Source: a virus
DNA: 64,000 bases
Reading direction: 5' to 3' (one strand)
Virus record (IMG/VR): IMGVR_UViG_3300016665_000824
Location: 64,001 to 128,000 of that record
The notes under the pieces were generated by a model. That model did no database searches. It worked only from the letters and a program-made list of their open reading frames with translations, and was not told the DNA's origin. Positions 1-23,882 of the stretch are shown here, piece after piece. The first letter of the stretch is position 1, and every line of letters starts with the position of its first letter. The translations under genes and the position numbers were made by a program.

Positions 1-686
1 TGTTCCCCTTCAAACCAAATCATCGGTTTGATCCTACAAATTTACAGTTTGAAGGATGGTTTACTGGGTGTAATTGGTACGAATTGAGAAAGGGCGAGTA
101 CATCACCGCAGAAGAGGAAGTTCTTGACGGCATTGCCTATCAAGGACAGGAAGTAGCGATCATCACAAAGAATGCTTACGAGGCAGAAGTTTTGAACGCC
201 AAGAATATGATGATTGTTGACGTGGATCTTGAGGGTGATCAGGCGATCGTGCAGAATGCTCAGTTCGCTCTTGACGTACTTCGATCTTTTATTAGCAACA
301 CAAAAAATTGGGATCTAGGCTTTAGGGTTTACAAAACTGCGGCAGGTTTGAGATATATCTGCACGACCCATGAATTTGAAGCGACAGATCCTCTTAGCGA
401 CAAGATTATGCGTAATTTACTCGCTGATGATCGCTACCGAGCTTTGTGTAAATTCCAAGATACCTATCGCGCTCGATTAACTCCAAAACCTTGGCGAGCT
501 TCTGACATTGCGTGGCGTAATCGCGGAGTGTGGGATGTTTCAGGCGAATGGGTGGAATATTTCAGGGTGTGTGACTCGCTTAGCCTCTACGGAAATACTA
601 ATATCCTTCCCCAGTTCGCCAAGGCGATCGAATACCATGATCGAATCACAAATGTCTTTGCCGATCCAAAACTAATCCTCGCGTAG
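1..686 (+). CDS. hypothetical protein, probably 5-prime partial (frame stays open to window start; TTG at 84 is the in-window start)
   Basis: No stop codon in this frame between nt 3 and 84; long ORF; no recognisable motif. Confidence 0.45.
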   Translation, partial: FPFKPNHRFDPTNLQFEGWFTGCNWYELRKGEYITAEEEVLDGIAYQGQEVAIITKNAYEAEVLNAKNMMIVDVDLEGDQAIVQNAQFALDVLRSFISNTKNWDLGFRVYKTAAGLRYICTTHEFEATDPLSDKIMRNLLADDRYRALCKFQDTYRARLTPKPWRASDIAWRNRGVWDVSGEWVEYFRVCDSLSLYGNTNILPQFAKAIEYHDRITNVFADPKLILA

Positions 687-1109
687 ATACTCTTCCAGAA
701 TAATCCCGATCTCTACCTCATCCTCTTTGGATACACCCAAGAACTTACGCACGGGTAAACCCTCTAGTCCTAATTGATGCTTCCGCATATAGTCCACATT
801 AGTACCCACAACCACGCGATCTTTAGTTGCCGCATAGTTAATCGAAGCTCGACCTCGACCTGACGCTTGGAGGATTTTATCGATATACCCCTTAGCCTTC
901 TTTAGTCGCCTTGTATAGGGCGTATTAGCCTTCCAAGGGTTTCCGTCGGGGTCAACCTCTTTCTCGAATCTCTGGTCTGTACTCAATAGAAGTTGCTGTC
1001 CGATCTCATTCATTACTGGAGTGAGGTCGGATGTTTTTTTGATCAACTTTCGGAGTTGCTCTTGGATGGCTTTGTCATTATAAGTGAGCGAGATGATTGG
1101 ATCAGCCAT
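672..1109 (-). CDS. phage virion morphogenesis protein (Mu gpG-like)
   Basis: 145 aa; ILQASGRGRASINY segment typical of Mu G-like family; directly downstream of Mu F-like gene with 8-nt overlap. Confidence 0.5.
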   Translation of the reverse strand: MADPIISLTYNDKAIQEQLRKLIKKTSDLTPVMNEIGQQLLLSTDQRFEKEVDPDGNPWKANTPYTRRLKKAKGYIDKILQASGRGRASINYAATKDRVVVGTNVDYMRKHQLGLEGLPVRKFLGVSKEDEVEIGIILEEYLRED

Positions 1110-1812
1110 TGACTTTCGCCTTGATTTGCTTCTTGACTTGAGTTCTCAGGTCTGGGGATAGTCGCTTCAGTCCCTGATTCAATATTTGCTGAGTTGTCTT
1201 CGCGTCTGTACCGCGACGAAAGTTGACACCCATGATCGTGTCGGGATCTGGTGGGTTTTCCAAGATTTCAATACCATTTCGCTCGCAGTAAGCGCGAGAC
1301 ACAGCGATCGCAGTACACTTGCAATTCCAATCACATGGAAATCCTATTCGCCTCCAGAAAGGAGAGGCTGCGGGAATCCCTTTATTGTGTAAAGCCTTAT
1401 GTGCTGGACGAGGCACTACCGAGTCGCGATGTCTCCATACCCATATATCGAGTTTCGCCATCACTTCAGGACTCCGCATCACCTTCTCCCTACCCTGCCA
1501 ATAAGACTTGTTGATATTCGTATCAAAAATCAACTTAATCTTCTGACCATTCGGCTGATATCCTGCGCGACCGATACGACGGTTAAAGCTACGAGTAAAT
1601 TGCTCGAAGGACGTGCCATCTTCAAGGGCTTTACCGATTAACCACTTAGTTGCTTCAAGTAAATCTGCTCGCATTAATCCAGATACCATAAAAGCGTGGT
1701 CGTGGATACGGGCATCTAAACCTTTGTAGTCGGATATAGGTAGAGCTAACCGATCGCGTAAGGCTGCGATCGCATCAACAGGTTTTAACTTCAAATACTC
1801 AGGGGTTGCCAC
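1102..1812 (-). CDS. phage head morphogenesis protein, Mu F / SPP1 gp7 family
   Basis: 236 aa; C-terminal PCDWNCKC resembles the conserved HPNCRC-type motif of the Mu F family; stop/start overlaps neighbours. Confidence 0.6.
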   Translation of the reverse strand: MATPEYLKLKPVDAIAALRDRLALPISDYKGLDARIHDHAFMVSGLMRADLLEATKWLIGKALEDGTSFEQFTRSFNRRIGRAGYQPNGQKIKLIFDTNINKSYWQGREKVMRSPEVMAKLDIWVWRHRDSVVPRPAHKALHNKGIPAASPFWRRIGFPCDWNCKCTAIAVSRAYCERNGIEILENPPDPDTIMGVNFRRGTDAKTTQQILNQGLKRLSPDLRTQVKKQIKAKVNG

Positions 1813-4394
1813 TAGCTCACCCTCCGAAACTTGTCGCGGGTTTCCCAGTAGGCTGCGAGGTAGACTTCCGATGTGGCGATCGCGTCGTTATTGAGTTGAC
1901 TGTCAATGAAGTCGCGTCCCTCCTTCTGCTTTTTCTGGATTTGCTCTTGTTGATAGGCGATCGCTTTTTGTAGTTTTGAGATCTGCTTCTCAGGGGTTAG
2001 TGTTCCAAATCCAGTTATATCTATCCCCATATTGGTTAGTGCTGTTTGAGATGCAGCTAGCGGCTTCTTCCCTGACTGAATTCGAGCAAGGGTCGCCTCT
2101 AAGGTCTTAGTGGTTGCCTCCATCTTGCTGATGTTGTTTTGAAGCGTTTTCAAGTCTATAGGCGGAGTAGCAGTCTTTGATTCAGTACTTGCAGCAGTAT
2201 CCACTGATTTATTTTTACGCGATCGTTTTTGGGTTGCGGTAGTACTGGTTGCAGTACTTACTGATTTACTGCTAGGCGATCGCGTAGAACTTTTTGAAAG
2301 GGGTGGCGCGGCGGAAGACTTAGCTCCGTAGTTTTCGGGATATCGGGCTTTGTTTTCTTGCACCAGTGATTCGTAGTAATCGGCGAATCCGTCTGCCGCT
2401 TCTTTTGCCTGTTCAAGGGAAAAGAAGCGGGTTTTATCTCTGTTCCTACCGCTAAACATATCGGCTAAATCTTCAGGTTCGTGCTCTTCGGTATAAACCA
2501 TCCACCCATCATCTTCTTTTTGGATGGAAATAAAGAGTGATGCGTCTTTGTCTGAAGCCTTTTTTCTTGCGTTGGAGCTGTATCTGTCAGCAGAGTCTGG
2601 ATCTTTAACCCACTCTCCAGCAATAACCTTGTCCAGCTTTTTATTGTATGTTTCTCGTGCTTTCTGTCTTCTCTCTGCGGCTTTCTGTTTTTTGGCAAAC
2701 TCTGCCAGTGTTTTTTCGGCGCTAGATACTAAACTGTTGGACTGACTTGAAGTCAAGTTGTCGGGTTTGCTGCTAGGCGATCGCTCTTGAGGGGTTTCGG
2801 GTTCTGCTTTAGGTGGTTTCGGAGCAACATACTTTTTACCAATCATCGCCTCATGCAGCAGCATTAATTCCTTGGCTTCAGAAGTATCAACACCTAGTGT
2901 CTCGATATCCCTAGCAATGACGGAGGCAAGCTTAGACTTTTGTTCTGGGGTAGCCTTGTCCGCAAACACCTCCTGATCCGACTGAGGAAACTTCTTGGTG
3001 TTTCTCAGCTCGTAAGCCGCATTTATGTTTGCTATCCCATCAACAGCCTTGGAAATCCTAACAGCTTCTTCCTGTGCTATTTCTTTCTTGCTTTTAGGTT
3101 TGACTGGAACATTCGCCTCCTGAGCGATCGCCGCTACTGGCTGGATAACTTCTTCAGTTTTTGGTTTTACCGCCCTGCTGCGACTCTTCTTAGGCTCGCC
3201 CTCTACGGGGTTTTTGGTTGATCTTTCTGTGTTAGGAGTCTCGTCTACCTGAGTTTTTGGAGGCTTAGCCGCTTTCTCTGTCGATCGAGACTTCGCCCGT
3301 GGGTTCTTGATGTTCTCGGCGATCGCCTCTTGAATCTTGTCTTGATTACGAGTAAACCGCATCTCGCCTACACGAATAACTCCTTTCCCATCCCTAAGAT
3401 CGATAGAGTATTGATTTGCACTCTCGGCAAGAGGAGTTCCTTTTTTCTTGTCAATGGCTCCACGAAACTGGATAGAGTCCTCAAGTCCATGTTCTTTAAG
3501 CTTGTCGTATAGTCGCTGCAAATCGACAGACTGTTTTTCGCGAGCAACCTTGTTTACAATACCGTTTCCTGCGCGAGCCTTTACGTCGTCGATACGGACA
3601 TATCCCTCATCATCAGCTAACTCAAGGTTCTGCTTCTTCCTCTCGATCTCTTCTGGGAGGAGTTGCTTACGTTTCAGTTCCGCAGCTAGAGCTAGTTCAT
3701 ACCCCCTCTTTTGGGCGGGGTAATTAACCGAAACTAGCTCCTTCAGGGCTTGAATCTTGGGTTGCTCAGCTTCGTATGCGGACTGGGCTTCTGGAGTTCT
3801 AACCTCTTGAGTCTTCTGCGGTTTTGTTACAGGAGTAGACTCAACCTGTTCAACTATGGGTTCAACCTCTTTAATATCTGTGTTTGCGGGTGGAGTTGAC
3901 TTGTTTGCGATCGCCGCACCAACACCCAATCCAACAGTCGCAGCCGCACCAACACCTACCGCAACATTTCTTGAAGTATTAGAGGGCGGAAGAGTTGGTC
4001 TCTGCCTAACGGGTTCCTGATAAGGTTCACTAGAACGCCCTGCGTTCACCACTGCGCCAGTCAAGGCTAGTCCGCCAACAGCTAATCCCGCACCGATCGC
4101 CGCTTTACTAAGAAAGCCCATCTCAGATTTTGGTGGTTCCTGCGATCGCGCCAATGCTCGCTCTAATTTTGATGGTGGTAGTACATTTACGCCCTGTCCT
4201 TGTGGAGCTTTCCGATAATAAAAACCACCCCTAACACGTCTATCCTGAACGCAAACATAACCTGCCCGTGGAGCGCAAGCATCGTAGCGCAACTTAACTT
4301 CTAGAGCCGCATCAATATACTCTTGAGGCATTACATCAAGAGTAATTTCGTCTAGATACAGACCAGCAAGGTAGTTCTTATCGAGATCTGGCAT
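1812..4394 (-). CDS. large (860 aa) membrane-anchored, low-complexity/coiled-coil protein of unknown function
   Basis: Two Gly/Ala-rich hydrophobic segments near N-terminus, long Lys/Glu/Ser/Thr-rich region; immediately upstream of Mu F-like gene. Confidence 0.55.
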   Translation of the reverse strand: MPDLDKNYLAGLYLDEITLDVMPQEYIDAALEVKLRYDACAPRAGYVCVQDRRVRGGFYYRKAPQGQGVNVLPPSKLERALARSQEPPKSEMGFLSKAAIGAGLAVGGLALTGAVVNAGRSSEPYQEPVRQRPTLPPSNTSRNVAVGVGAAATVGLGVGAAIANKSTPPANTDIKEVEPIVEQVESTPVTKPQKTQEVRTPEAQSAYEAEQPKIQALKELVSVNYPAQKRGYELALAAELKRKQLLPEEIERKKQNLELADDEGYVRIDDVKARAGNGIVNKVAREKQSVDLQRLYDKLKEHGLEDSIQFRGAIDKKKGTPLAESANQYSIDLRDGKGVIRVGEMRFTRNQDKIQEAIAENIKNPRAKSRSTEKAAKPPKTQVDETPNTERSTKNPVEGEPKKSRSRAVKPKTEEVIQPVAAIAQEANVPVKPKSKKEIAQEEAVRISKAVDGIANINAAYELRNTKKFPQSDQEVFADKATPEQKSKLASVIARDIETLGVDTSEAKELMLLHEAMIGKKYVAPKPPKAEPETPQERSPSSKPDNLTSSQSNSLVSSAEKTLAEFAKKQKAAERRQKARETYNKKLDKVIAGEWVKDPDSADRYSSNARKKASDKDASLFISIQKEDDGWMVYTEEHEPEDLADMFSGRNRDKTRFFSLEQAKEAADGFADYYESLVQENKARYPENYGAKSSAAPPLSKSSTRSPSSKSVSTATSTTATQKRSRKNKSVDTAASTESKTATPPIDLKTLQNNISKMEATTKTLEATLARIQSGKKPLAASQTALTNMGIDITGFGTLTPEKQISKLQKAIAYQQEQIQKKQKEGRDFIDSQLNNDAIATSEVYLAAYWETRDKFRRVS

Positions 4395-4953
4395 AATGTC
4401 TTTTCACTTCTAGATAGGCGGCTTGGTACTCAAGGGGTTTGGTTGAGTCAACTCGTTTAGATTTTGCGAGTGGTTTCTTATAGTTCGGAGCCTTGTCTTG
4501 ACCACCACAAGCGCATTGAGCTTTAGTCAACCCTTTCTTCTTGCAGTCCGAACATCCGCATTTATCGTTCATACCCATAGAATCCACCTTGTATTTATTA
4601 CTGCCGTTAGCAGGAAGGCTCTTTGACCACAAATCTTTCCTTGCCCAATGATTGGGACTAAACACGTCGTTTGCTGTGGACTGCCCTGATTTGTTTTTAA
4701 TCCCCGCCGATCGCGCTAAGTAGCTCTTCTTCGCCTCGGCGCTGTAGTTGTTCTGATATCCAGTTGCGCCATAGTGGACAACCTTGATGCGATCGCCTTT
4801 TTTCACGAGTACAGCCCGTTTCTTGCCTGGTCGCCATGACTTGATGGGTTTGTTAAAAGCGGGAAAGGTATGCCCAGCATAGTTAATACCGCCACCTTCC
4901 TTCTTGAGGCAGCGCTTGCCTGCCGAGATATATCCTTTGCCGCATTGAGCCAT
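4378..4953 (-). CDS. basic Cys-rich hypothetical protein
   Basis: 191 aa ORF, Lys-rich with CGCSDC and CACGG cysteine clusters; 17-nt overlap with downstream gene. Confidence 0.4.
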   Translation of the reverse strand: MAQCGKGYISAGKRCLKKEGGGINYAGHTFPAFNKPIKSWRPGKKRAVLVKKGDRIKVVHYGATGYQNNYSAEAKKSYLARSAGIKNKSGQSTANDVFSPNHWARKDLWSKSLPANGSNKYKVDSMGMNDKCGCSDCKKKGLTKAQCACGGQDKAPNYKKPLAKSKRVDSTKPLEYQAAYLEVKRHYARSR

Positions 4954-5039: not shown

Positions 5040-6593
5040 TTGGCATTTAGTTGTGCGATCGCTATGGCAAAATTTACAACAGGAGATCAGGCTTCAACTG
5101 CTGCTCTGTCGCGAGTTGACACTCTTCTCCAAACTATAAATACCGACGCAGACTATGCGCTTTGGCGGGAATGGATTTATGACAGGGCGATCGCCAAACT
5201 AGCACTAGGCTTAACTGGCGGAGGTGGAAGCTCCACTTCAATTCTTGCGGGTTTCAAGGCGATCGCTAATGGCACTGGCTACAGTATTGGCGATTTGATA
5301 TTTTTGCGGCAAACAGGAACTAACCAAACCGAATATTACAACGGTACTACAGGTTTAGTTATTACACCTGCCCCACCTAGCAGCGATCTTGGCTCTATTA
5401 TCTCTTCTAGTAATGTTGCTGTTACATCACTTCCTCCATTGCCGTCTGGCGCAAATACCATTGGCGCTATATCAAATGCTAGTTTTGGTATTAGTGGTAG
5501 CTTGCCAGCATTTGCTAGCACACCCACAGTAAATATTGGTACTACTGGCGCGATCGCCACTGATAGCACCTTACAGCAAGTAAGGGACGCGATCAAAGCA
5601 CAGATCGATATCGCCTCAACAATTTGGACAGATAACACAGATACTTTTTATGTACGACGAGATCTGGTAAACGAAGGAACGGGAGTAATCACTGTATCTT
5701 TTACTTTGCCAGACGGTACGGCGGCTACACCTAGCGCTGGACTTAGACCTCTAGCAACCGTAGATAAAGATGTTCTTAGTGATTATTACGATGTATTGAT
5801 TGCGGGTACTGGCTATGCGATCGGGGATTTATTAGCAAGGGTTGCGATCATTGATGCAAACGGTGCTTCTCCAACATCAACATTTATCTGGCTGAATTTG
5901 ACGGCAGGGACAATCCTCGGAACAGCACCTAGTTCTGCAAATATTGAAAGAGCGAACGAAACTATCGGTGCTAGGCAAAGCGGTACATGGAATATCACCA
6001 ATATTAGTGGTACGGTATCACTACCTACGGGAGCCAGTACATCGGCTAATCAGGCTACAGCGATCTCAAGCCTTGGCAGCATTGACGGAAAACTCCCTGC
6101 GAGTTTAGGGGTAAAAACTGCTGCTAATTCACTTGCTGTAACGCTTTCAACGGATGGAATCGCGAGTGGAATTGACACAAAAATTGGCGAAGTCCAAACA
6201 ACTCCAACTGCTAATACTGTTTTGGCGAGATTAAAAAATATTGCTGATGCGTTGGTGTTTGGGGCAAAATCACCAGCTAATAGTATTTCAGTTACCCAAG
6301 CTTTCGCCGCAACATCTACCCTAGCGAATGTGGCTAGTAGTGCGACATCAGTTAGCTTGTTAGCTGCCAACAATAACCGCAAAACAGCAATCATTCTAAA
6401 TGATTCGACTTCAGATTTATACGTTACTCTCAACGCAAGCGCCGCCAGTACGACGAATTATTCATTATTTTTAGCCGCTAAAGTTGGTAACACGCCATCA
6501 TTTTTAGCTATAAATGGTGATGATTATTCGGGCGAAATTCGTGGAATTTGGAGTAGTGCTAATGGTTTCGCAAGAATTACGGAGGTCGTGTAA
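5040..6593 (+). CDS. tail fibre-like protein (Ser/Thr/Ala/Gly-rich); ATG at 5064 is an alternative start
   Basis: 517 aa low-complexity S/T/A/G/N-rich composition typical of fibre/receptor-binding proteins; stop overlaps next start (TAATG). Confidence 0.5.
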   Translation: MAFSCAIAMAKFTTGDQASTAALSRVDTLLQTINTDADYALWREWIYDRAIAKLALGLTGGGGSSTSILAGFKAIANGTGYSIGDLIFLRQTGTNQTEYYNGTTGLVITPAPPSSDLGSIISSSNVAVTSLPPLPSGANTIGAISNASFGISGSLPAFASTPTVNIGTTGAIATDSTLQQVRDAIKAQIDIASTIWTDNTDTFYVRRDLVNEGTGVITVSFTLPDGTAATPSAGLRPLATVDKDVLSDYYDVLIAGTGYAIGDLLARVAIIDANGASPTSTFIWLNLTAGTILGTAPSSANIERANETIGARQSGTWNITNISGTVSLPTGASTSANQATAISSLGSIDGKLPASLGVKTAANSLAVTLSTDGIASGIDTKIGEVQTTPTANTVLARLKNIADALVFGAKSPANSISVTQAFAATSTLANVASSATSVSLLAANNNRKTAIILNDSTSDLYVTLNASAASTTNYSLFLAAKVGNTPSFLAINGDDYSGEIRGIWSSANGFARITEVV

Positions 6594-7498
6594 TGATTAT
6601 TGTTAATAATTCCACTAGTGCTGCTGGCATTGGGAAAAACTATTTTAAGAATCCCAATTTTCAAGTAATCCAAGGCACTGCATCAGGGACGCTCGCCAAT
6701 TCCACAGCATTACCCACAGCATCACTAGGATACCTAGGTGAGACTGAATGGGGTATTGCGGCGGCGGGTGGCACTCCTGCTTATGCTTTTAGCTCAGCGA
6801 ATGAATCTGTTACCTTTACGGGTGCAGCATCAACTACCGCTATTTATTTGCTTCAAAGACTTGAAAGCAGAGATATTACTACTCTAGCCAACAAACTGGC
6901 GACAATTACTTTTAGTGCTGAGATATCTAATTCGCTGCTTACTTCGGTAATTTGGGAAGTATTTCGCCCTACTACCACTGCTGACACTCATGGCACAATT
7001 GGCACACCTACGCAGACATTGATTGCTAGTGGAACGTTCACCGTAAACTCAACGCTGACAAAGTATAGCGCCACATTTACCCTTCCTGCATTAGCTGCTA
7101 ATGGACTGGAGGTAAGACTAAGAGTAGGGGCGCAAACTTCTGGAACTTGGGTGGTGTCAAGGTTGCAATTAGAAGAAGGTAGTGTTGCTACTAACTTCAT
7201 TTGTGATGATTATTTGACTGAATTGAATCAATGTCAAAGATACTTTAGAAGATTATCAGATTATCTATATGTTTATTTTGGTACTACTGGTGTATTAAAT
7301 AGTGAACGAATGCATTTAAATATGTTTGGTACTACTAGAATTAGAAATTTAATAGCACAAAATTCAATAGGTGGAACTGGAGTTACTATATCAGCAGGAC
7401 TTAATGAAGATTCAACTAGAGCTAATTATATAAATAATGCTGGAGCTGGTTACTATGGTGGCAATCCATTATATACAGTGTCAGCACACATCCCTTAA
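6593..7498 (+). CDS. tail fibre-like protein
   Basis: 301 aa, S/T/A/G-rich, translationally coupled to upstream fibre-like gene. Confidence 0.45.
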
Positions 7499-7515
7499 AA
7501 ATACAAATAAAAACA

Positions 7516-7896
7516 ATGGAATTTACATATAAACTAATACAAAATCAACCAAACTCCATCATAAGACTTGAAGATGGAGCAATTATCCCAGAAGGGCATA
7601 ATGGTGATTGGCAACTTTACGAGGCATGGTTAGCTGAAGGAAATACGCCTGAAGCCGCTGATGCGCTGCCTATTGTAGTGCGGGAAATCGATGCTCGTAA
7701 ACTGCGATTAGCTTTGCTTCAATTAGGGCATCTATCTACCGTCACTAGCGCTATTTCTAGCCTTGGTGAGGCTGCAATCATTGATTGGGAATATGCCACA
7801 ATCATTCGCGAAGATTACCCTTTGGTACTGGCTTTGGCAAGCAATTTAAATTTGGATATTAAAGCAATATTTGATTTAGCGAATTCATTGGTGTAA
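7516..7896 (+). CDS. hypothetical protein (possible tail-fibre assembly/chaperone by position)
   Basis: 126 aa ORF directly downstream of fibre-like genes; positional inference only. Confidence 0.35.
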
Positions 7897-7898
7897 TT

Positions 7899-8444
7899 GT
7901 GGCAGGAGATCTAATCCCAATCTTAAAGAGCTATTTTGATTTTGCGGTGATCGCGCAAATATCGGACAATAGAGGTACGGTTGGGATACCTTCTCAATCA
8001 AATCCCCCCGACAGCAGCATCAGCCAGATCAGCACTGCTGCTGTCGGTAGTGCTGTCGTTGTTACTGCTCTTTTTAAATTGTTTGAAAAATTTGGAACAA
8101 ATGTAATTGATGGGCAAAAAAGCAGGCTTAGCCTTGATTTAAAGGCTAAAGAGCTAGAGCTAGAATTTGAAAAGGCTGAAAAGTTGGCAGCCAGAAAAGA
8201 GGAAGAGCGCAAAACTGAACTAATCGAACAAATACTGAATAACGCACTGTCACACGTTTACAGCACAGCCAAAGAAAACAAAGAAATTTACCATGAATTG
8301 CTTGAAAAATTCCAAAAAAGTAACGAAATTAACGAGAAAGCTTGGAGCAAAATAGAAGAACAAAGCCAAGAAATCCATTTGTTAAACCAAACTTTAAAAG
8401 ATGTTTTAGCGACGCTAAGTTTGAAAGATCGTCAAAAAACCTAA
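7899..8444 (+). CDS. hypothetical protein with hydrophobic segment and Lys/Glu-rich coiled-coil region
   Basis: 181 aa ORF; start 3 nt after upstream stop. Confidence 0.4.
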   Translation: MAGDLIPILKSYFDFAVIAQISDNRGTVGIPSQSNPPDSSISQISTAAVGSAVVVTALFKLFEKFGTNVIDGQKSRLSLDLKAKELELEFEKAEKLAARKEEERKTELIEQILNNALSHVYSTAKENKEIYHELLEKFQKSNEINEKAWSKIEEQSQEIHLLNQTLKDVLATLSLKDRQKT

Positions 8445-9552: not shown

Positions 9553-11208
9553 TTATTTGAGTCGTCCCTCAACCCACATCTTAGCAAAGGGAGAGTCCAA
9601 ATCCTTAAACAACCGAGAAGCAATTTCTACAGCCGAAACGGAATCCTGTTTAACACCTTCTTCGGGAGGTGTATCTGCTTGACCCTGATCTGCACCTTGA
9701 TCGCCAAAGTAGTCGCCACCTTGATCGCCGCCATATCCCTGTAGAGCTGCAAGCTCTTGTTGCTGCTTGGCTAATTCTTCATCCTGCTTCAGTTTTTCCC
9801 ACGCTTCCTTATCGAGAGAGACCTCATAGGAGTACTCTGTTCCACCGTAGAGGCTAGCGCGAACTTCATCCTTAGTAATTGCTCCCGACTGGGTTTGCAG
9901 AGCGATAAGCATATTAGTGTGAGCAGTTTGGTTGGCTACTTCATCTTTGCGACTCTCTACATAGAGGGGTTTAAACTTATAAGACCATCCTTCAGGGATC
10001 TTACCCTTCGTAGGGCCATCTTGAGCGAGCCAAATATACTTGTAAAGCATATCCAACTTGCGGTGGCGATAATTCTGCTCTTGATAGGCAGCAACGGTCT
10101 TTGACCAAACCTGATCTTCGGTTTCTCCAGTACCACCTGCCGCTAACCCTTTTGGTCCACGCCCAAAGATCATTGTGTAAGGAATCCCCACCGCAGCAAC
10201 CAAATCTTCTTGAAAGCTCGCTTTCATGTCGGACAAGCCTTGGTAGTTCCGCACTAGATAAGTAAGGTCATCTTCCGAGTCTACCGACACCGCCCCCAGC
10301 TTCCGCATCTGCATCTTCATGGCGCGAAACTGTTCTGAAAGAATGGTTAAAGCTTTTGGCACTCCATTGGTAGTGGCAGCTCCACCAGCAGCTTTTTCTT
10401 GGGCAAGATTTTGTTTGATCAGGTTTTGCAGGTTCTTCATCTTGTGGAGAAGAATCGTGTGATCTTGAATCATCTCCGCCATTGCGTCGGAGACTTTTGT
10501 GTAGCGAGCAATTTCTTTGAGTGCTGAGACGATTAGCGGATCGCCCCATCCACCCGTCGATCGCAACAATCTTGGAGGTAATCGAGAACCATCAAATCGA
10601 ATAATCCGCGATTTGTGAATTAAGTTGAACGAGGTGTAGTTTGAGCCTAACTTATCTATCTTGGATTTCGATTCTTGGGAGTAAAAGACCTGATAAAAGT
10701 CGGGGTCATCAGAGGGTGCATCAAGGTTTGGGAAATACGGGCGGATATCCTGCGGGTCAAGCTCGTAGATACCCTTGATGGTTTTAATTTTTGCCGTGTT
10801 AACTGGCTCGTTTGGGGGTAGCCCATCATCGATATTGACGAGAATAGCTGCGCCGCCATAAATATTCGCTAGCCAGTCAGCCTTATTAAATTTGTATTTC
10901 GCTTCTATCCTTTCTTCGTACTGTTCAAAGGCTGTGGCAATCTTGCGATCAGTGTCCTTAACTAAGCTAATCTCAGTCCATTTTCTTGTTGCCTCGTCAG
11001 GAAACACCGAGACAATTTTCTTTCCTAGCCAGTCCCTAGATAGTTCTTCGAGGGCTTTGTAGCTTAGTCTGCGCCGATCGCCTGTGCTATTCATCCCCAG
11101 ATCATTCTGAGCGAGCAGGTTGTTGTTGTACTCAGCCTCATAGAGCGCATCGATAATGGCTCCGTCTTGTCTCACATAGACTTCGGGATAATCTGTTTCT
11201 TTGGACAT
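9553..11208 (-). CDS. major virion structural protein (portal or major capsid candidate; not resolvable by eye)
   Basis: 551 aa ORF with Gly/Asp/Gln-rich C-terminal tail; preceded by intrinsic terminator and leader inverted repeat; downstream of a coiled-coil scaffold-like gene. Confidence 0.6.
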   Translation of the reverse strand: MSKETDYPEVYVRQDGAIIDALYEAEYNNNLLAQNDLGMNSTGDRRRLSYKALEELSRDWLGKKIVSVFPDEATRKWTEISLVKDTDRKIATAFEQYEERIEAKYKFNKADWLANIYGGAAILVNIDDGLPPNEPVNTAKIKTIKGIYELDPQDIRPYFPNLDAPSDDPDFYQVFYSQESKSKIDKLGSNYTSFNLIHKSRIIRFDGSRLPPRLLRSTGGWGDPLIVSALKEIARYTKVSDAMAEMIQDHTILLHKMKNLQNLIKQNLAQEKAAGGAATTNGVPKALTILSEQFRAMKMQMRKLGAVSVDSEDDLTYLVRNYQGLSDMKASFQEDLVAAVGIPYTMIFGRGPKGLAAGGTGETEDQVWSKTVAAYQEQNYRHRKLDMLYKYIWLAQDGPTKGKIPEGWSYKFKPLYVESRKDEVANQTAHTNMLIALQTQSGAITKDEVRASLYGGTEYSYEVSLDKEAWEKLKQDEELAKQQQELAALQGYGGDQGGDYFGDQGADQGQADTPPEEGVKQDSVSAVEIASRLFKDLDSPFAKMWVEGRLK

Positions 11209-22632: not shown

Positions 22633-22861
22633 CTTGATCTTCCCTATCTACGCGAGCTTCTCCCTCTAAAACTTTTTGCAGGTCTAAAACTCTGAAGCCG
22701 ACTGGGTTGCACTGAGTTAACTTGGCTGCGTCATGGATGGCATGACCATACTCTTCGTAAATCTTTCCCTCTTCTACCCCCGCTTCGGCGCAGGCAGGGC
22801 CAGAATAAGGCTCGGAGGTGTAACGACTCGATTTATTGATGATGTACTTAGGCATATTCAC
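22613..22861 (-). CDS. hypothetical protein
   Basis: 82 aa ORF overlapping primase start by 20 nt. Confidence 0.35.
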   Translation of the reverse strand: MNMPKYIINKSSRYTSEPYSGPACAEAGVEEGKIYEEYGHAIHDAAKLTQCNPVGFRVLDLQKVLEGEARVDREDQDAIRQT

Positions 22862-22896
22862 CTCTTGAGAATCTTTTGTACGATCGCTTGTTGTCG

Positions 22897-23199
22897 TTAA
22901 ACAAATAGGAAGGACTGAACTTCATCAGCCTTGGTTGCGACCAACGGCAAGTGCTGACGCAGTATCTTGTACCCTTGCATCTCCCAAGTCAAAGCAATCC
23001 TCTCCGCTAGCTCTAAAGCGTCATAACAAGGATTTAATCGATGAAAAACACCGCTCAGTAATTCGTACCCACACTCAGGGGGGAGTTGCTCAAGATCTTG
23101 GATTAGCTGAGTAATTTTAGTACTTACCGTGATACCACCTTGATTAACAAAAATAGTCGCGTCAAATGTTTTGCTTAGACCTTTCAAATTGATTGTCAT
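22897..23199 (-). CDS. hypothetical protein (start at internal ATG 23199)
   Basis: Track ORF 22897..23283 overlaps upstream gene; internal Met (MTINLKG) removes the overlap. Confidence 0.35.
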   Translation of the reverse strand: MTINLKGLSKTFDATIFVNQGGITVSTKITQLIQDLEQLPPECGYELLSGVFHRLNPCYDALELAERIALTWEMQGYKILRQHLPLVATKADEVQSFLFV

Positions 23200-23209
23200 T
23201 TTGTTCTTC

Positions 23210-23674
23210 CTATATCTTTTGCGCGATCGCTTGCTTATGGATGCGATCGCTATGTGTTTGCACTGCCGCCAATTCCCGCTCAAGCTGATCGAATGTCACT
23301 CCATCCCTCTTGTCGCCGTCAACCACTGGGGTTAGTACGGGGTTGATAACTGGGGAGTAGACACACCAGCAGATAGCGATCATGTCGAACTCGGAAGACA
23401 ATCCTTCAGCCTTAAAGACCTCTACCGAATCAACAACCCAATCGGACTTACGAGAATGTGTAGTCCCATCGTCACGCTGATGGGACTTGAGAGACTCGGT
23501 TACTGTTACTGGGTGGATAGGTCGATCGCCTTTCTTTGGCACGGGTTTTGATGAGTAGCTAAGAACCGTGTAGAGGATGTCGGTAAATAGATTGCAGTGA
23601 GTTAGCTTGCGATCGCTAGCACCCTCAGTTTGTCCCACTTTTGCCTTATAGATAATATATTTACTCACTGTCAT
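23210..23674 (-). CDS. hypothetical protein
   Basis: 154 aa ORF. Confidence 0.4.
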   Translation of the reverse strand: MTVSKYIIYKAKVGQTEGASDRKLTHCNLFTDILYTVLSYSSKPVPKKGDRPIHPVTVTESLKSHQRDDGTTHSRKSDWVVDSVEVFKAEGLSSEFDMIAICWCVYSPVINPVLTPVVDGDKRDGVTFDQLERELAAVQTHSDRIHKQAIAQKI

Positions 23675-23882
23675 TGTCTCCGTATGTTCTGGGGAATTTT
23701 GCTTCGCCTTTGTAGAAGCAGTTGTGTGTCAGGATTGGATCTCTTGTCAGCTCGTAATGAGAGTAATCCCAATCGTATTTCTTAGCCATTTTTATACATC
23801 TTTCTTCGCTTGACGCGCTGTGAGTTGTATAAAACTCCTGTTCTTCGTCGTCGTCATTCTGTGGCAAAATCTCGTTAGCCAT
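23661..23882 (-). CDS. hypothetical small protein (first gene of minus-strand operon)
   Basis: 73 aa; divergent from the HTH gene at 24028. Confidence 0.35.
   Translation of the reverse strand: MANEILPQNDDDEEQEFYTTHSASSEERCIKMAKKYDWDYSHYELTRDPILTHNCFYKGEAKFPRTYGDNDSE

Follow-up and report, generated by a model that had tools for sequence, protein, structure and literature searches.

The largest open reading frame (ORF) in a 64-kb stretch of viral DNA (positions 64,001 to 128,000 of IMG/VR record IMGVR_UViG_3300016665_000824, hereafter the window) encodes a protein of 860 amino acids (aa), located on the minus strand between genes for portal and Mu F-like (MuF) head proteins. The protein, whose gene probably originates from a cyanobacterial virus, has a constant N-terminal unit, an interior that changes between closely related phages, and a constant C-terminal tail. 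We give a probability of about 0.5 to the reading, taken with its whole chain of steps, that it is a head-packaged cargo protein, associated with MuF and the portal and expelled at infection. According to this reading, the protein would be made together with MuF, packed close to the portal within the capsid, and ejected along with the DNA when a cell is infected. The N-terminal unit, comprising a helix/hairpin domain and one or two Gly-zipper segments, would be the delivery part, soluble in the capsid and inserted into the host membrane after ejection, while the interior would be a string of exchangeable cargo modules varying by phage. The C-terminal tail would couple translation to MuF, and may dock onto it. 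Packaging in the virion, ejection, membrane insertion and docking onto MuF are steps that we infer; the operon structure, the synteny with head genes in four lineages, the cassette-like organisation and the domains attached to relatives are described below.

Homologues confirm that the gene is real: 12 were found by a word-indexed search of 5.8 billion clusters, and 21 relatives at an expectation value (E) <= 0.001 by an exhaustive HMMER scan of 1.84 billion representative proteins, and with these a spurious ORF is ruled out. A preliminary description of this DNA, made from the letters alone, had placed the ORF at 1812-4394, which proved exact. The ATG at 4394 is supported by the conservation of residues 1-21 at the protein level in alignments with distant clades, and the strongly negative plus-strand AT skew over positions 2001-4000 fits coding on the minus strand. 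The residue counts (A 100, K 88, E 75, S 67, P 52, T 51) bear out the Ser/Thr/Lys/Glu-rich composition noted earlier. No tandem repeats were found in the gene, the Rfam search gave no match, and a promoter and terminator scan returned counts not above those of shuffled sequence. The ORF and its parts are listed below; compared loci and proteins carry numbers beginning with L and P, and pLDDT denotes the predicted local distance difference test score.

1812..4394, minus strand: 860-aa ORF, ATG start, TAG stop at 1812-1814 (ORF list and homologues)
4125..4394, minus strand: constant N-terminal domain, aa 1-90 (alignment; model pLDDT 68-84 for aa 1-65)
4041..4118, minus strand: Gly/Ala-rich hydrophobic segment 1, aa 93-118, with G103xxxG107 and A110xxxA114xxxA118, nearly invariant family-wide
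3990..4040, minus strand: conserved linker, aa 119-135 (GRSSEPYQEPVRQ...), where nucleotide similarity to L002, L010 and L011 ends
3900..3968, minus strand: Gly/Ala-rich hydrophobic segment 2, aa 143-165, with G147xxxA151xxxG155xxxG159, conserved in the close clade only
3285..3797, minus strand: interior module A, aa 200-370, predicted folded alpha/beta (pLDDT 76-91)
2820..3092, minus strand: interior module B, aa 435-525, predicted helical (AlphaFold model, intermediate confidence)
2325..2726, minus strand: interior module C, aa 557-690, with a predicted helical stretch at ~557-590, absent from all compared loci
2160..2324, minus strand: Ser/Thr-rich low-complexity linker, aa 691-745 (23 Ser and Thr residues in aa 701-750; pLDDT below 50)
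1893..2159, minus strand: interior module D, aa 746-834, predicted helical (pLDDT 82-92), on a separate 260-aa ORF in L002
1815..1892, minus strand: constant C-terminal tail, aa 835-860 (NNDAIATSEVYLAAYWETRDKFRRVS), defined by alignments, with its two Arg codons forming the MuF Shine-Dalgarno sequence

The gene is embedded in an operon of head genes. As the preliminary description had stated, it lies upstream of Mu F-like and Mu G-like genes; these match PF04233 and PF05069 and follow it directly. The same description expected a portal gene in this position, in agreement with the order reported in PMC5576092, and treated it as missing; the portal is in fact present, about 5 kb further upstream. 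The head genes concerned are the following.

9553..11208, minus strand: portal protein (PF06381, E 1.5e-57; phrog_146, E 1.2e-74)
4378..4953, minus strand: upstream 191-aa gene with a head-associated domain (phrog_220 positions 512-631, E 2e-31), overlapping the start of the 860-aa ORF by 17 nucleotides (nt)
1102..1812, minus strand: Mu F-like minor head protein with GTG start (PF04233, E 1.1e-8; phrog_220 positions 896-1116, E 7e-51)
672..1109, minus strand: Mu G-like virion morphogenesis / Neck1 protein (PF05069, E 7.5e-32)

The 191-aa ORF, the 860-aa ORF, MuF and Mu G are tightly coupled translationally. The ATG of the 860-aa ORF falls 17 nt within the 191-aa ORF, and its TAG shares 1 nt with the GTG start of MuF. 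A GGAGG Shine-Dalgarno sequence at 1821-1825, 8 bases before this GTG, is made by the last two Arg codons of the 860-aa ORF (CGG AGG), and an identical CGG AGG is reported in three related loci (L002, L008 and L010).

A similar gene occurs within the portal–MuF–Mu G block in four lineages, namely the clade of the window, L013, L012 and L016. In L013, a Pseudanabaena contig, a tail like that of the 191-aa ORF is followed by the target-like gene (53% N-terminal identity), MuF, Mu G and DUF2213. L012 has a giant protein combining portal and InPase, a protein with the N-terminal unit and an HExxH domain, and MuF, while L016 contains portal plus InPase, MuF, Mu G and the 1853-aa protein P0027. This synteny, together with the operon coupling, supports a role in the head as proposed above. 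L013 is NZ_LIRE01000676.1, a 66.6-kb contig in the assembly of Pseudanabaena sp. 'Roaring Creek', and its presence in a cyanobacterial assembly points to cyanobacteria as hosts. The contig of L016 encodes an integrase (22800..23864). From these two contigs, some members of the group may be temperate or co-assembled with their host. Giant ORFs with lipase, cutinase and thioesterase signatures lie by the head block in L012 (14829..19517, 1562 aa) and L017 (6608..11998, 1796 aa), and are further candidates for polyvalent or injected proteins.

The interior of the protein is exchanged while its ends and the neighbouring genes are retained. Between the window and L002, identity reaches 96% for the portal, 95% for the 191-aa ORF and 97% for Mu G; within the 860-aa protein, it is 93% for aa 1-135, 44% for aa 201-370 and 76% for aa 746-834, and aa 371-690 have no match. 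Nucleotide similarity stops at aa ~130 (L002, L010, L011) or ~182 (L008, L009), and picks up again at aa ~724, ~807 or ~831-835. Among phages whose flanking genes are 80-97% identical, the full-length homologues are 814-1684 aa long and their interiors are unrelated; the subsets of interior modules differ from locus to locus. Module A is 35-53% identical in L002, L008, L009 and L010, with no match in L011, L012 and L013; module B is found among the compared loci only in L008, L009 and L011, and also in the stand-alone protein P0017. Constant ends, partial sharing of modules, stand-alone modules and a homologue split at a module border together indicate cassette exchange between fixed ends.

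The split homologue lies at 10001..13362 of L002 and consists of ORFs of 862 and 260 aa, which overlap by 10 nt in the -1 frame. The split is identical in three independent assemblies (L002, L003 and L004) and could be a gene fission or a programmed frameshift; the module opening the 260-aa piece lies in-frame inside P0020 and P0021. Part of module C (aa ~585-690; 2325..2640, minus strand, containing 'KEDDGWMVYTEEHEPED') corresponds to the stand-alone 96-aa protein P0026 and is also found inside the 487-aa P0028, and is thus a mobile small domain. P0028 also bears the junction/Cys-knuckle element described below.

The full AlphaFold model was built from a 12-sequence alignment, and the N-terminal domain was remodelled with a more diverse one. 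The model shows folded modules joined by P/S/T/K-rich linkers, with low confidence elsewhere, and only the linkers are compositionally simple. This differs from the earlier view of the C-terminal 600+ residues as one low-complexity, coiled-coil-prone tract, since folded modules are predicted at about aa 200-370, 435-525 and 746-834 (pLDDT up to 92) besides a helical stretch at ~557-590. According to the model the protein has at least four folded modules, none of them with a recognisable activity.

All relatives share an N-terminal unit of ~130 aa, consisting of the N-terminal domain, a Gly/Ala segment and a linker. The domain is predicted to contain helices at residues 6-13, 16-21 and 24-39, a beta-hairpin at 46-50/58-62, and a helix at 76-85. 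It is 83-93% identical in close loci and 32-53% identical in distant ones. The family-wide invariant residues R43 A44 G45, V49, D51, R53 V54, G57, Y59 and R61 form the pattern RAG-x-x-x-V-x-D-x-RV-x-x-G-x-Y-x-R. The folded N-terminal domain of ~110 aa proposed from the letters stands for about aa 1-65 (pLDDT 68-84) and not beyond. At the other end, a tail of ~25 aa is common to most relatives. Its sequence is ...NNDAIA-HETYYSA-EQA----LRRFAA in a clade in which the N-terminal unit is the only other shared part. In the 860-aa protein, the last four residues of the tail are also constrained by the MuF ribosome-binding site.

Two Gly/Ala-rich hydrophobic segments had been recognised previously and were found at aa 93-118 and 143-165. 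Their 19-residue Kyte-Doolittle maxima are 1.93 (segment 1) and 1.97 (segment 2), and on the Hessa scale the best 19-mers give simple sums of +1.7 and +2.2 kcal/mol, respectively, which is marginal; AlphaFold builds neither segment as a helix. The description of the protein as membrane-anchored is thus a hypothesis rather than an observation, and is not established; only segment 1 is conserved family-wide. Such marginal hydrophobicity would suit a segment that is soluble first and inserted in a membrane later. Judging from the sequence, the loop between the segments carries a net charge of +2 and the flank after segment 2 a net charge of -3, and this basic loop and acidic flank would fit insertion from outside better than an anchor in the producer cell.

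A recurring helix marks the borders of these parts. The pattern P-x-E-Y-x-x-A-x-L-E-x-K-x-R-Y / ...R-x-D-A occurs on the minus strand at 4381..4437, 4272..4328 and 1815..1871, that is at the C-end of the 191-aa ORF, at aa 23-41 of the 860-aa protein and in its tail; the helix ends in R-x-Y/D-A and lies at ORF or module borders. The pattern was first noticed by eye and then scored with 19-mer profiles. For profiles of either motif of the 860-aa protein, the C-end of the 191-aa ORF was the best non-self 19-mer among 33,543 in the window, with modest margins. The pairing recurs in the distant L013 clade, P0027 has four copies, and the helix is also present at domain borders of gp012 (YDYRADA, AYRQDNCGCS) of the cyanobacterial siphovirus vB_AphaS-CL131. 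The helix may serve for cleavage or for docking, or may be the scar of a recombination event.

Several relatives carry recognisable domains. P0013 (1684 aa) and P0025 (826 aa) have the N-terminal unit and HExxH domains at the end, and the HExxH domain of P0025 matches PHROGs including a 'minor head protein' family; HeH (PF12949) is found in several close homologues. P0027 contains DnaJ (PF00226) and LRAT/NlpC-P60 (PF04970) and is built of four tandem units. In each unit a junction element, formed by a helix with R-x-D-A at its end and by a RAGY hairpin or Cys knuckle, precedes one or two Gly/Ala hydrophobic segments, after which further sequence follows. The HExxH, DnaJ, LRAT/NlpC-P60 and HeH domains match the set reported among injected polyvalent proteins with MuF or portal fusions (PMC5512222).

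The nearest isolate is vB_AphaS-CL131. Its 1393-aa gp012 combines Portal_3, a domain like the 191-aa ORF, InPase, MuF and a Gly-rich hydrophobic tail; it was found in virions by liquid chromatography with tandem mass spectrometry (LC-MS/MS), and the tape measure is a separate protein, ORF049 (PMC6293099). PHROG 220 ('minor head protein and DNA pilot', 1338 positions) has a comparable layout, being matched by the portal of the window at positions 52-501, by the 191-aa ORF at 512-631 and by MuF at 896-1116. The separate portal, 191-aa ORF and MuF thus match the layout of PHROG 220 and gp012, so that in the phage of the window this head polyprotein is broken up into individual genes. The 860-aa protein occupies the slot between the domain of the 191-aa ORF and MuF, and does not itself match the PHROG 220 profile, although its neighbours do. 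Like this protein, gp012, a proven virion protein, has a Gly-rich hydrophobic stretch, with which it ends, but no similarity between the two was detected by BLAST.

Among known systems, the polyvalent proteins of Iyer et al. 2017 are one of the closest, being multi-module mosaics in a portal–MuF context that are predicted to be packaged in the head and injected with DNA; fusions of MuF and portal domains with variable effector domains, likewise predicted to be injected, are recurrent (PMC5512222). The HExxH, LRAT/NlpC-P60 and DnaJ domains of the relatives and the polyvalent-associated InPase of the CL131 portal fusion add to this likeness, and several disparate activities within one polypeptide are seen in relatives (DnaJ plus LRAT in P0027; HExxH in P0013 and P0025). 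The 860-aa protein differs from polyvalent proteins in having no recognised enzymatic domain itself, in the constant Gly/Ala N-terminal unit and constant tail of its family (the word 'transmembrane' is absent from the main text of PMC5512222), and in having its variable part flanked by two fixed ends, on a polypeptide other than MuF. Mosaic proteins linked to MuF or the portal and predicted to be injected were already known; the fixed N-terminal hairpin/Gly-zipper unit, the cassette interior and the fixed tail, separate from MuF, set this family apart from them.

Proteins of the MuF family provide a further parallel. SPP1 gp7 binds the portal (PMC5576092), and 80alpha gp44, confirmed here as a PF04233 protein, is ejected with DNA and incorporated through the portal crown (PMC7290940, PMC12889711). 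The proposed storage near the portal and expulsion are shared with these two proteins and with P22 gp7/gp20/gp16 and T7 gp14/gp15/gp16, some of which insert into the envelope; none is similar to the 860-aa protein in sequence or fold (Foldseek; phmmer and hmmsearch against PDB). The ejectosome proteins of P22 and T7 belong to short-tailed phages, and to our knowledge no cassette-like interior has been described for them. The short, weakly hydrophobic segments also recall glycine zippers in their G/A-xxx-G-xxx-G spacing, for which a pore or membrane role is putative; they differ from glycine-zipper families in that no profile match was obtained even at E <= 5. Of the three functions envisaged in the preliminary description, that of an ejection or pilot protein is favoured, and it is context only that favours it: the synteny, the modules of the relatives, CL131 gp012 and the ejected MuF-family protein. 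A membrane-remodelling factor had also been suggested, and nothing speaks for it beyond two weakly hydrophobic segments.

Several observations weigh against delivery from the head. The virion location of the 860-aa protein and of its homologues is putative, and no cultured phage carries the gene, as a tblastn search of 50,697 phage records gave no match for the full protein and none for the N-terminal unit at E <= 1. The protein itself has neither an enzymatic or effector domain recognisable with Pfam, PHROGs and NCBIfam nor a structural neighbour. The hydrophobic segments, not modelled as helices, could be non-membrane Gly/Ala linkers, and segment 2 is not conserved in distant clades. A docking role of the tail is putative, since its conservation is partly explained at the RNA level by the MuF ribosome-binding site. 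Finally, gene order differs in L016, where the protein with the N-terminal unit comes after Mu G.

The main alternatives keep the protein in the producing cell or in the head. As an anchor in the cytoplasmic or thylakoid membrane, it would be a non-virion protein that organises prohead assembly initiated by portal and MuF, or another late process. Membrane-associated portal assembly is known for T4 (gp20/gp40), the two segments reach Kyte-Doolittle maxima near 1.9-2.0, and the gene is co-translated with head-assembly genes; however, the hydrophobicity is marginal for insertion by Sec/YidC, and by the positive-inside rule the C-terminal 700 aa would face the exterior of the cell, an implausible arrangement in the absence of a signal peptide. 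Swapping of the interior between phages with 96-97% identical head genes, and the gain of peptidase, LRAT and DnaJ modules, would be unexpected of an assembly factor, so that we consider such an anchor unlikely. Similarly unlikely is a non-membrane internal head protein, charged and partly disordered, that organises DNA or acts like a core or scaffold, with the Gly/Ala segments as flexible spacers. The high K/E/S/T/P content, long disordered linkers, position in the head block and HeH (PF12949) modules of several homologues are in line with it, as is the winged-helix-like topology of the N-terminal domain, a weak lead at E > 1. Against it stand the separate scaffold-type gene (PF09979) and capsid gene nearby, the status of segment 1 as the most invariant part of the family, unexpected for a spacer, and the fourfold succession of junction element and Gly/Ala hydrophobic segments in P0027.

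Two further alternatives are less probable still. Constant ends with a variable interior beside MuF resemble the logic of polymorphic toxins (Jamet et al. 2017, PMC5576092), which likewise combine a constant with a highly variable part in a packaging/head module with MuF, and the integrase on the contig of one relative and the occurrence of another in a cyanobacterial genome assembly would suit a toxin cargo serving competition between bacteria rather than infection. In those toxins, however, MuF forms the constant N-terminus, followed by a C-terminal toxin and a small immunity gene, whereas here MuF is encoded as a protein of its own, Pfam and NCBIfam revealed no toxin domain, and the downstream gene is MuF and not a small immunity ORF; this function is very unlikely. 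A tape measure or other length ruler, also raised in the preliminary description, is rejected as the least probable of all. The protein is long and helix-rich, with hydrophobic Gly-rich segments like many tape measures, but its gene lies in the head block between portal and MuF and not among tail genes, and the separate ORF049 takes this role in CL131. No family matched at E <= 0.01, tail-labelled PHROGs appeared only at E above 0.1, and homologue length (814-1684 aa) is not conserved where flanking genes are 80-97% identical. A profile match to a portal or tape-measure family across the length of the protein was sought in Pfam and PHROGs, and none was found. The protein was also considered as the portal itself, and this was discarded in view of the lack of a portal profile match (Pfam, PHROG) and the presence of the real portal at 9553..11208.

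Delivery from the head thus being preferred, a more far-reaching version of it can be put forward tentatively, with the odds clearly against it. The family might be an undescribed cyanophage-head delivery platform, in which a portable unit carries arbitrary cargo into the host membrane at infection. Such a unit would consist of the junction helix (R-x-D-A), a RAGY hairpin or Cys knuckle, and one or two Gly-zipper segments, and could be concatenated (four in P0027), single (the 860-aa protein) or split. The junction and tail peptides would then be sites of cleavage or docking, through which an ancestral portal–cargo–MuF polyprotein could still function once divided among several genes.

The roles of MuF-family head proteins and the delivery of proteins with DNA by long-tailed phages are still poorly understood. 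A short MuF with a separate partner bearing fixed ends and an exchangeable interior offers a natural system for asking whether association with MuF and the portal loads cargo, which end signals loading, and whether injected proteins enter the host membrane by means of Gly-zipper segments. The turnover of the interior between near-identical phages makes it a likely place of conflict between bloom-forming cyanobacteria and their phages. Chosen proteins could be packaged into phage heads if the signals for loading were defined.

The family is described in no library or paper searched. Neither the whole protein nor its segments matched a family in Pfam, PHROGs or NCBIfam. For segments at E <= 5 only noise was obtained, with one hit, DUF2613 (E 0.0076), below the cut-off of that family; no Pfam Gly-zipper family matched at this threshold. 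Foldseek searches with the full model gave best E values of 2.1 in PDB and 0.14 in BFVD. The N-terminal model gave nothing significant against PDB (best E 1.6), its best hits (E > 1) being winged-helix domains, a lead only. Searches of PDB sequences with phmmer and hmmsearch returned nothing. Single-protein searches of viral contigs with P0019 and P0027 gave no loci, while alignment-based scans did.

The proteins of the window are those of a phage genome, including primase, DnaB helicase, large terminase, sliding clamp and a lysis-type peptidase. Tail genes and a tape measure of this phage were not found in the window or in the 10 kb past its end. On the minus strand the portal is followed by small ORFs, the 191-aa ORF, the 860-aa ORF, MuF and Mu G, with a plus-strand island interposed. 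The 191-aa ORF bears Cys-rich knuckles (CGKGYISAGKRC; CGCSDC...CACGG), and its core (aa ~16-120) was found in 107 phage records. In Vibrio phage ICP1 this core falls in a region annotated as 'capsid protease', in vB_VcorM_GR11A it belongs to a Peptidase_S78_2 protein, and it is also part of the CL131 portal fusion. No Pfam model matched the core at E <= 0.01, and a 'DUF5872-like' label considered for the ORF, which Pfam did not confirm, was dropped.

Past the start of the window (18568..21866 of L001), the head module goes on with PF09979 (DUF2213/Pa193_gp24), a 290-aa ORF and a major capsid protein (PF09950). These genes are separated from Mu G by an inserted gene that resembles anti-repressors (pRha; Bro-N in L002). 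The plus-strand island (5040..8444, 3.4 kb) separates the portal block from the operon of the 191-aa ORF, the 860-aa ORF, MuF and Mu G, and comprises four ORFs of 517, 301, 126 and 181 aa without a family match, the first two being S/T/A/G-rich. Its counterpart in L002 holds about twelve different genes between flanking genes of 95-97% identity. The island thus forms a second variable site, with a possible role in host recognition.

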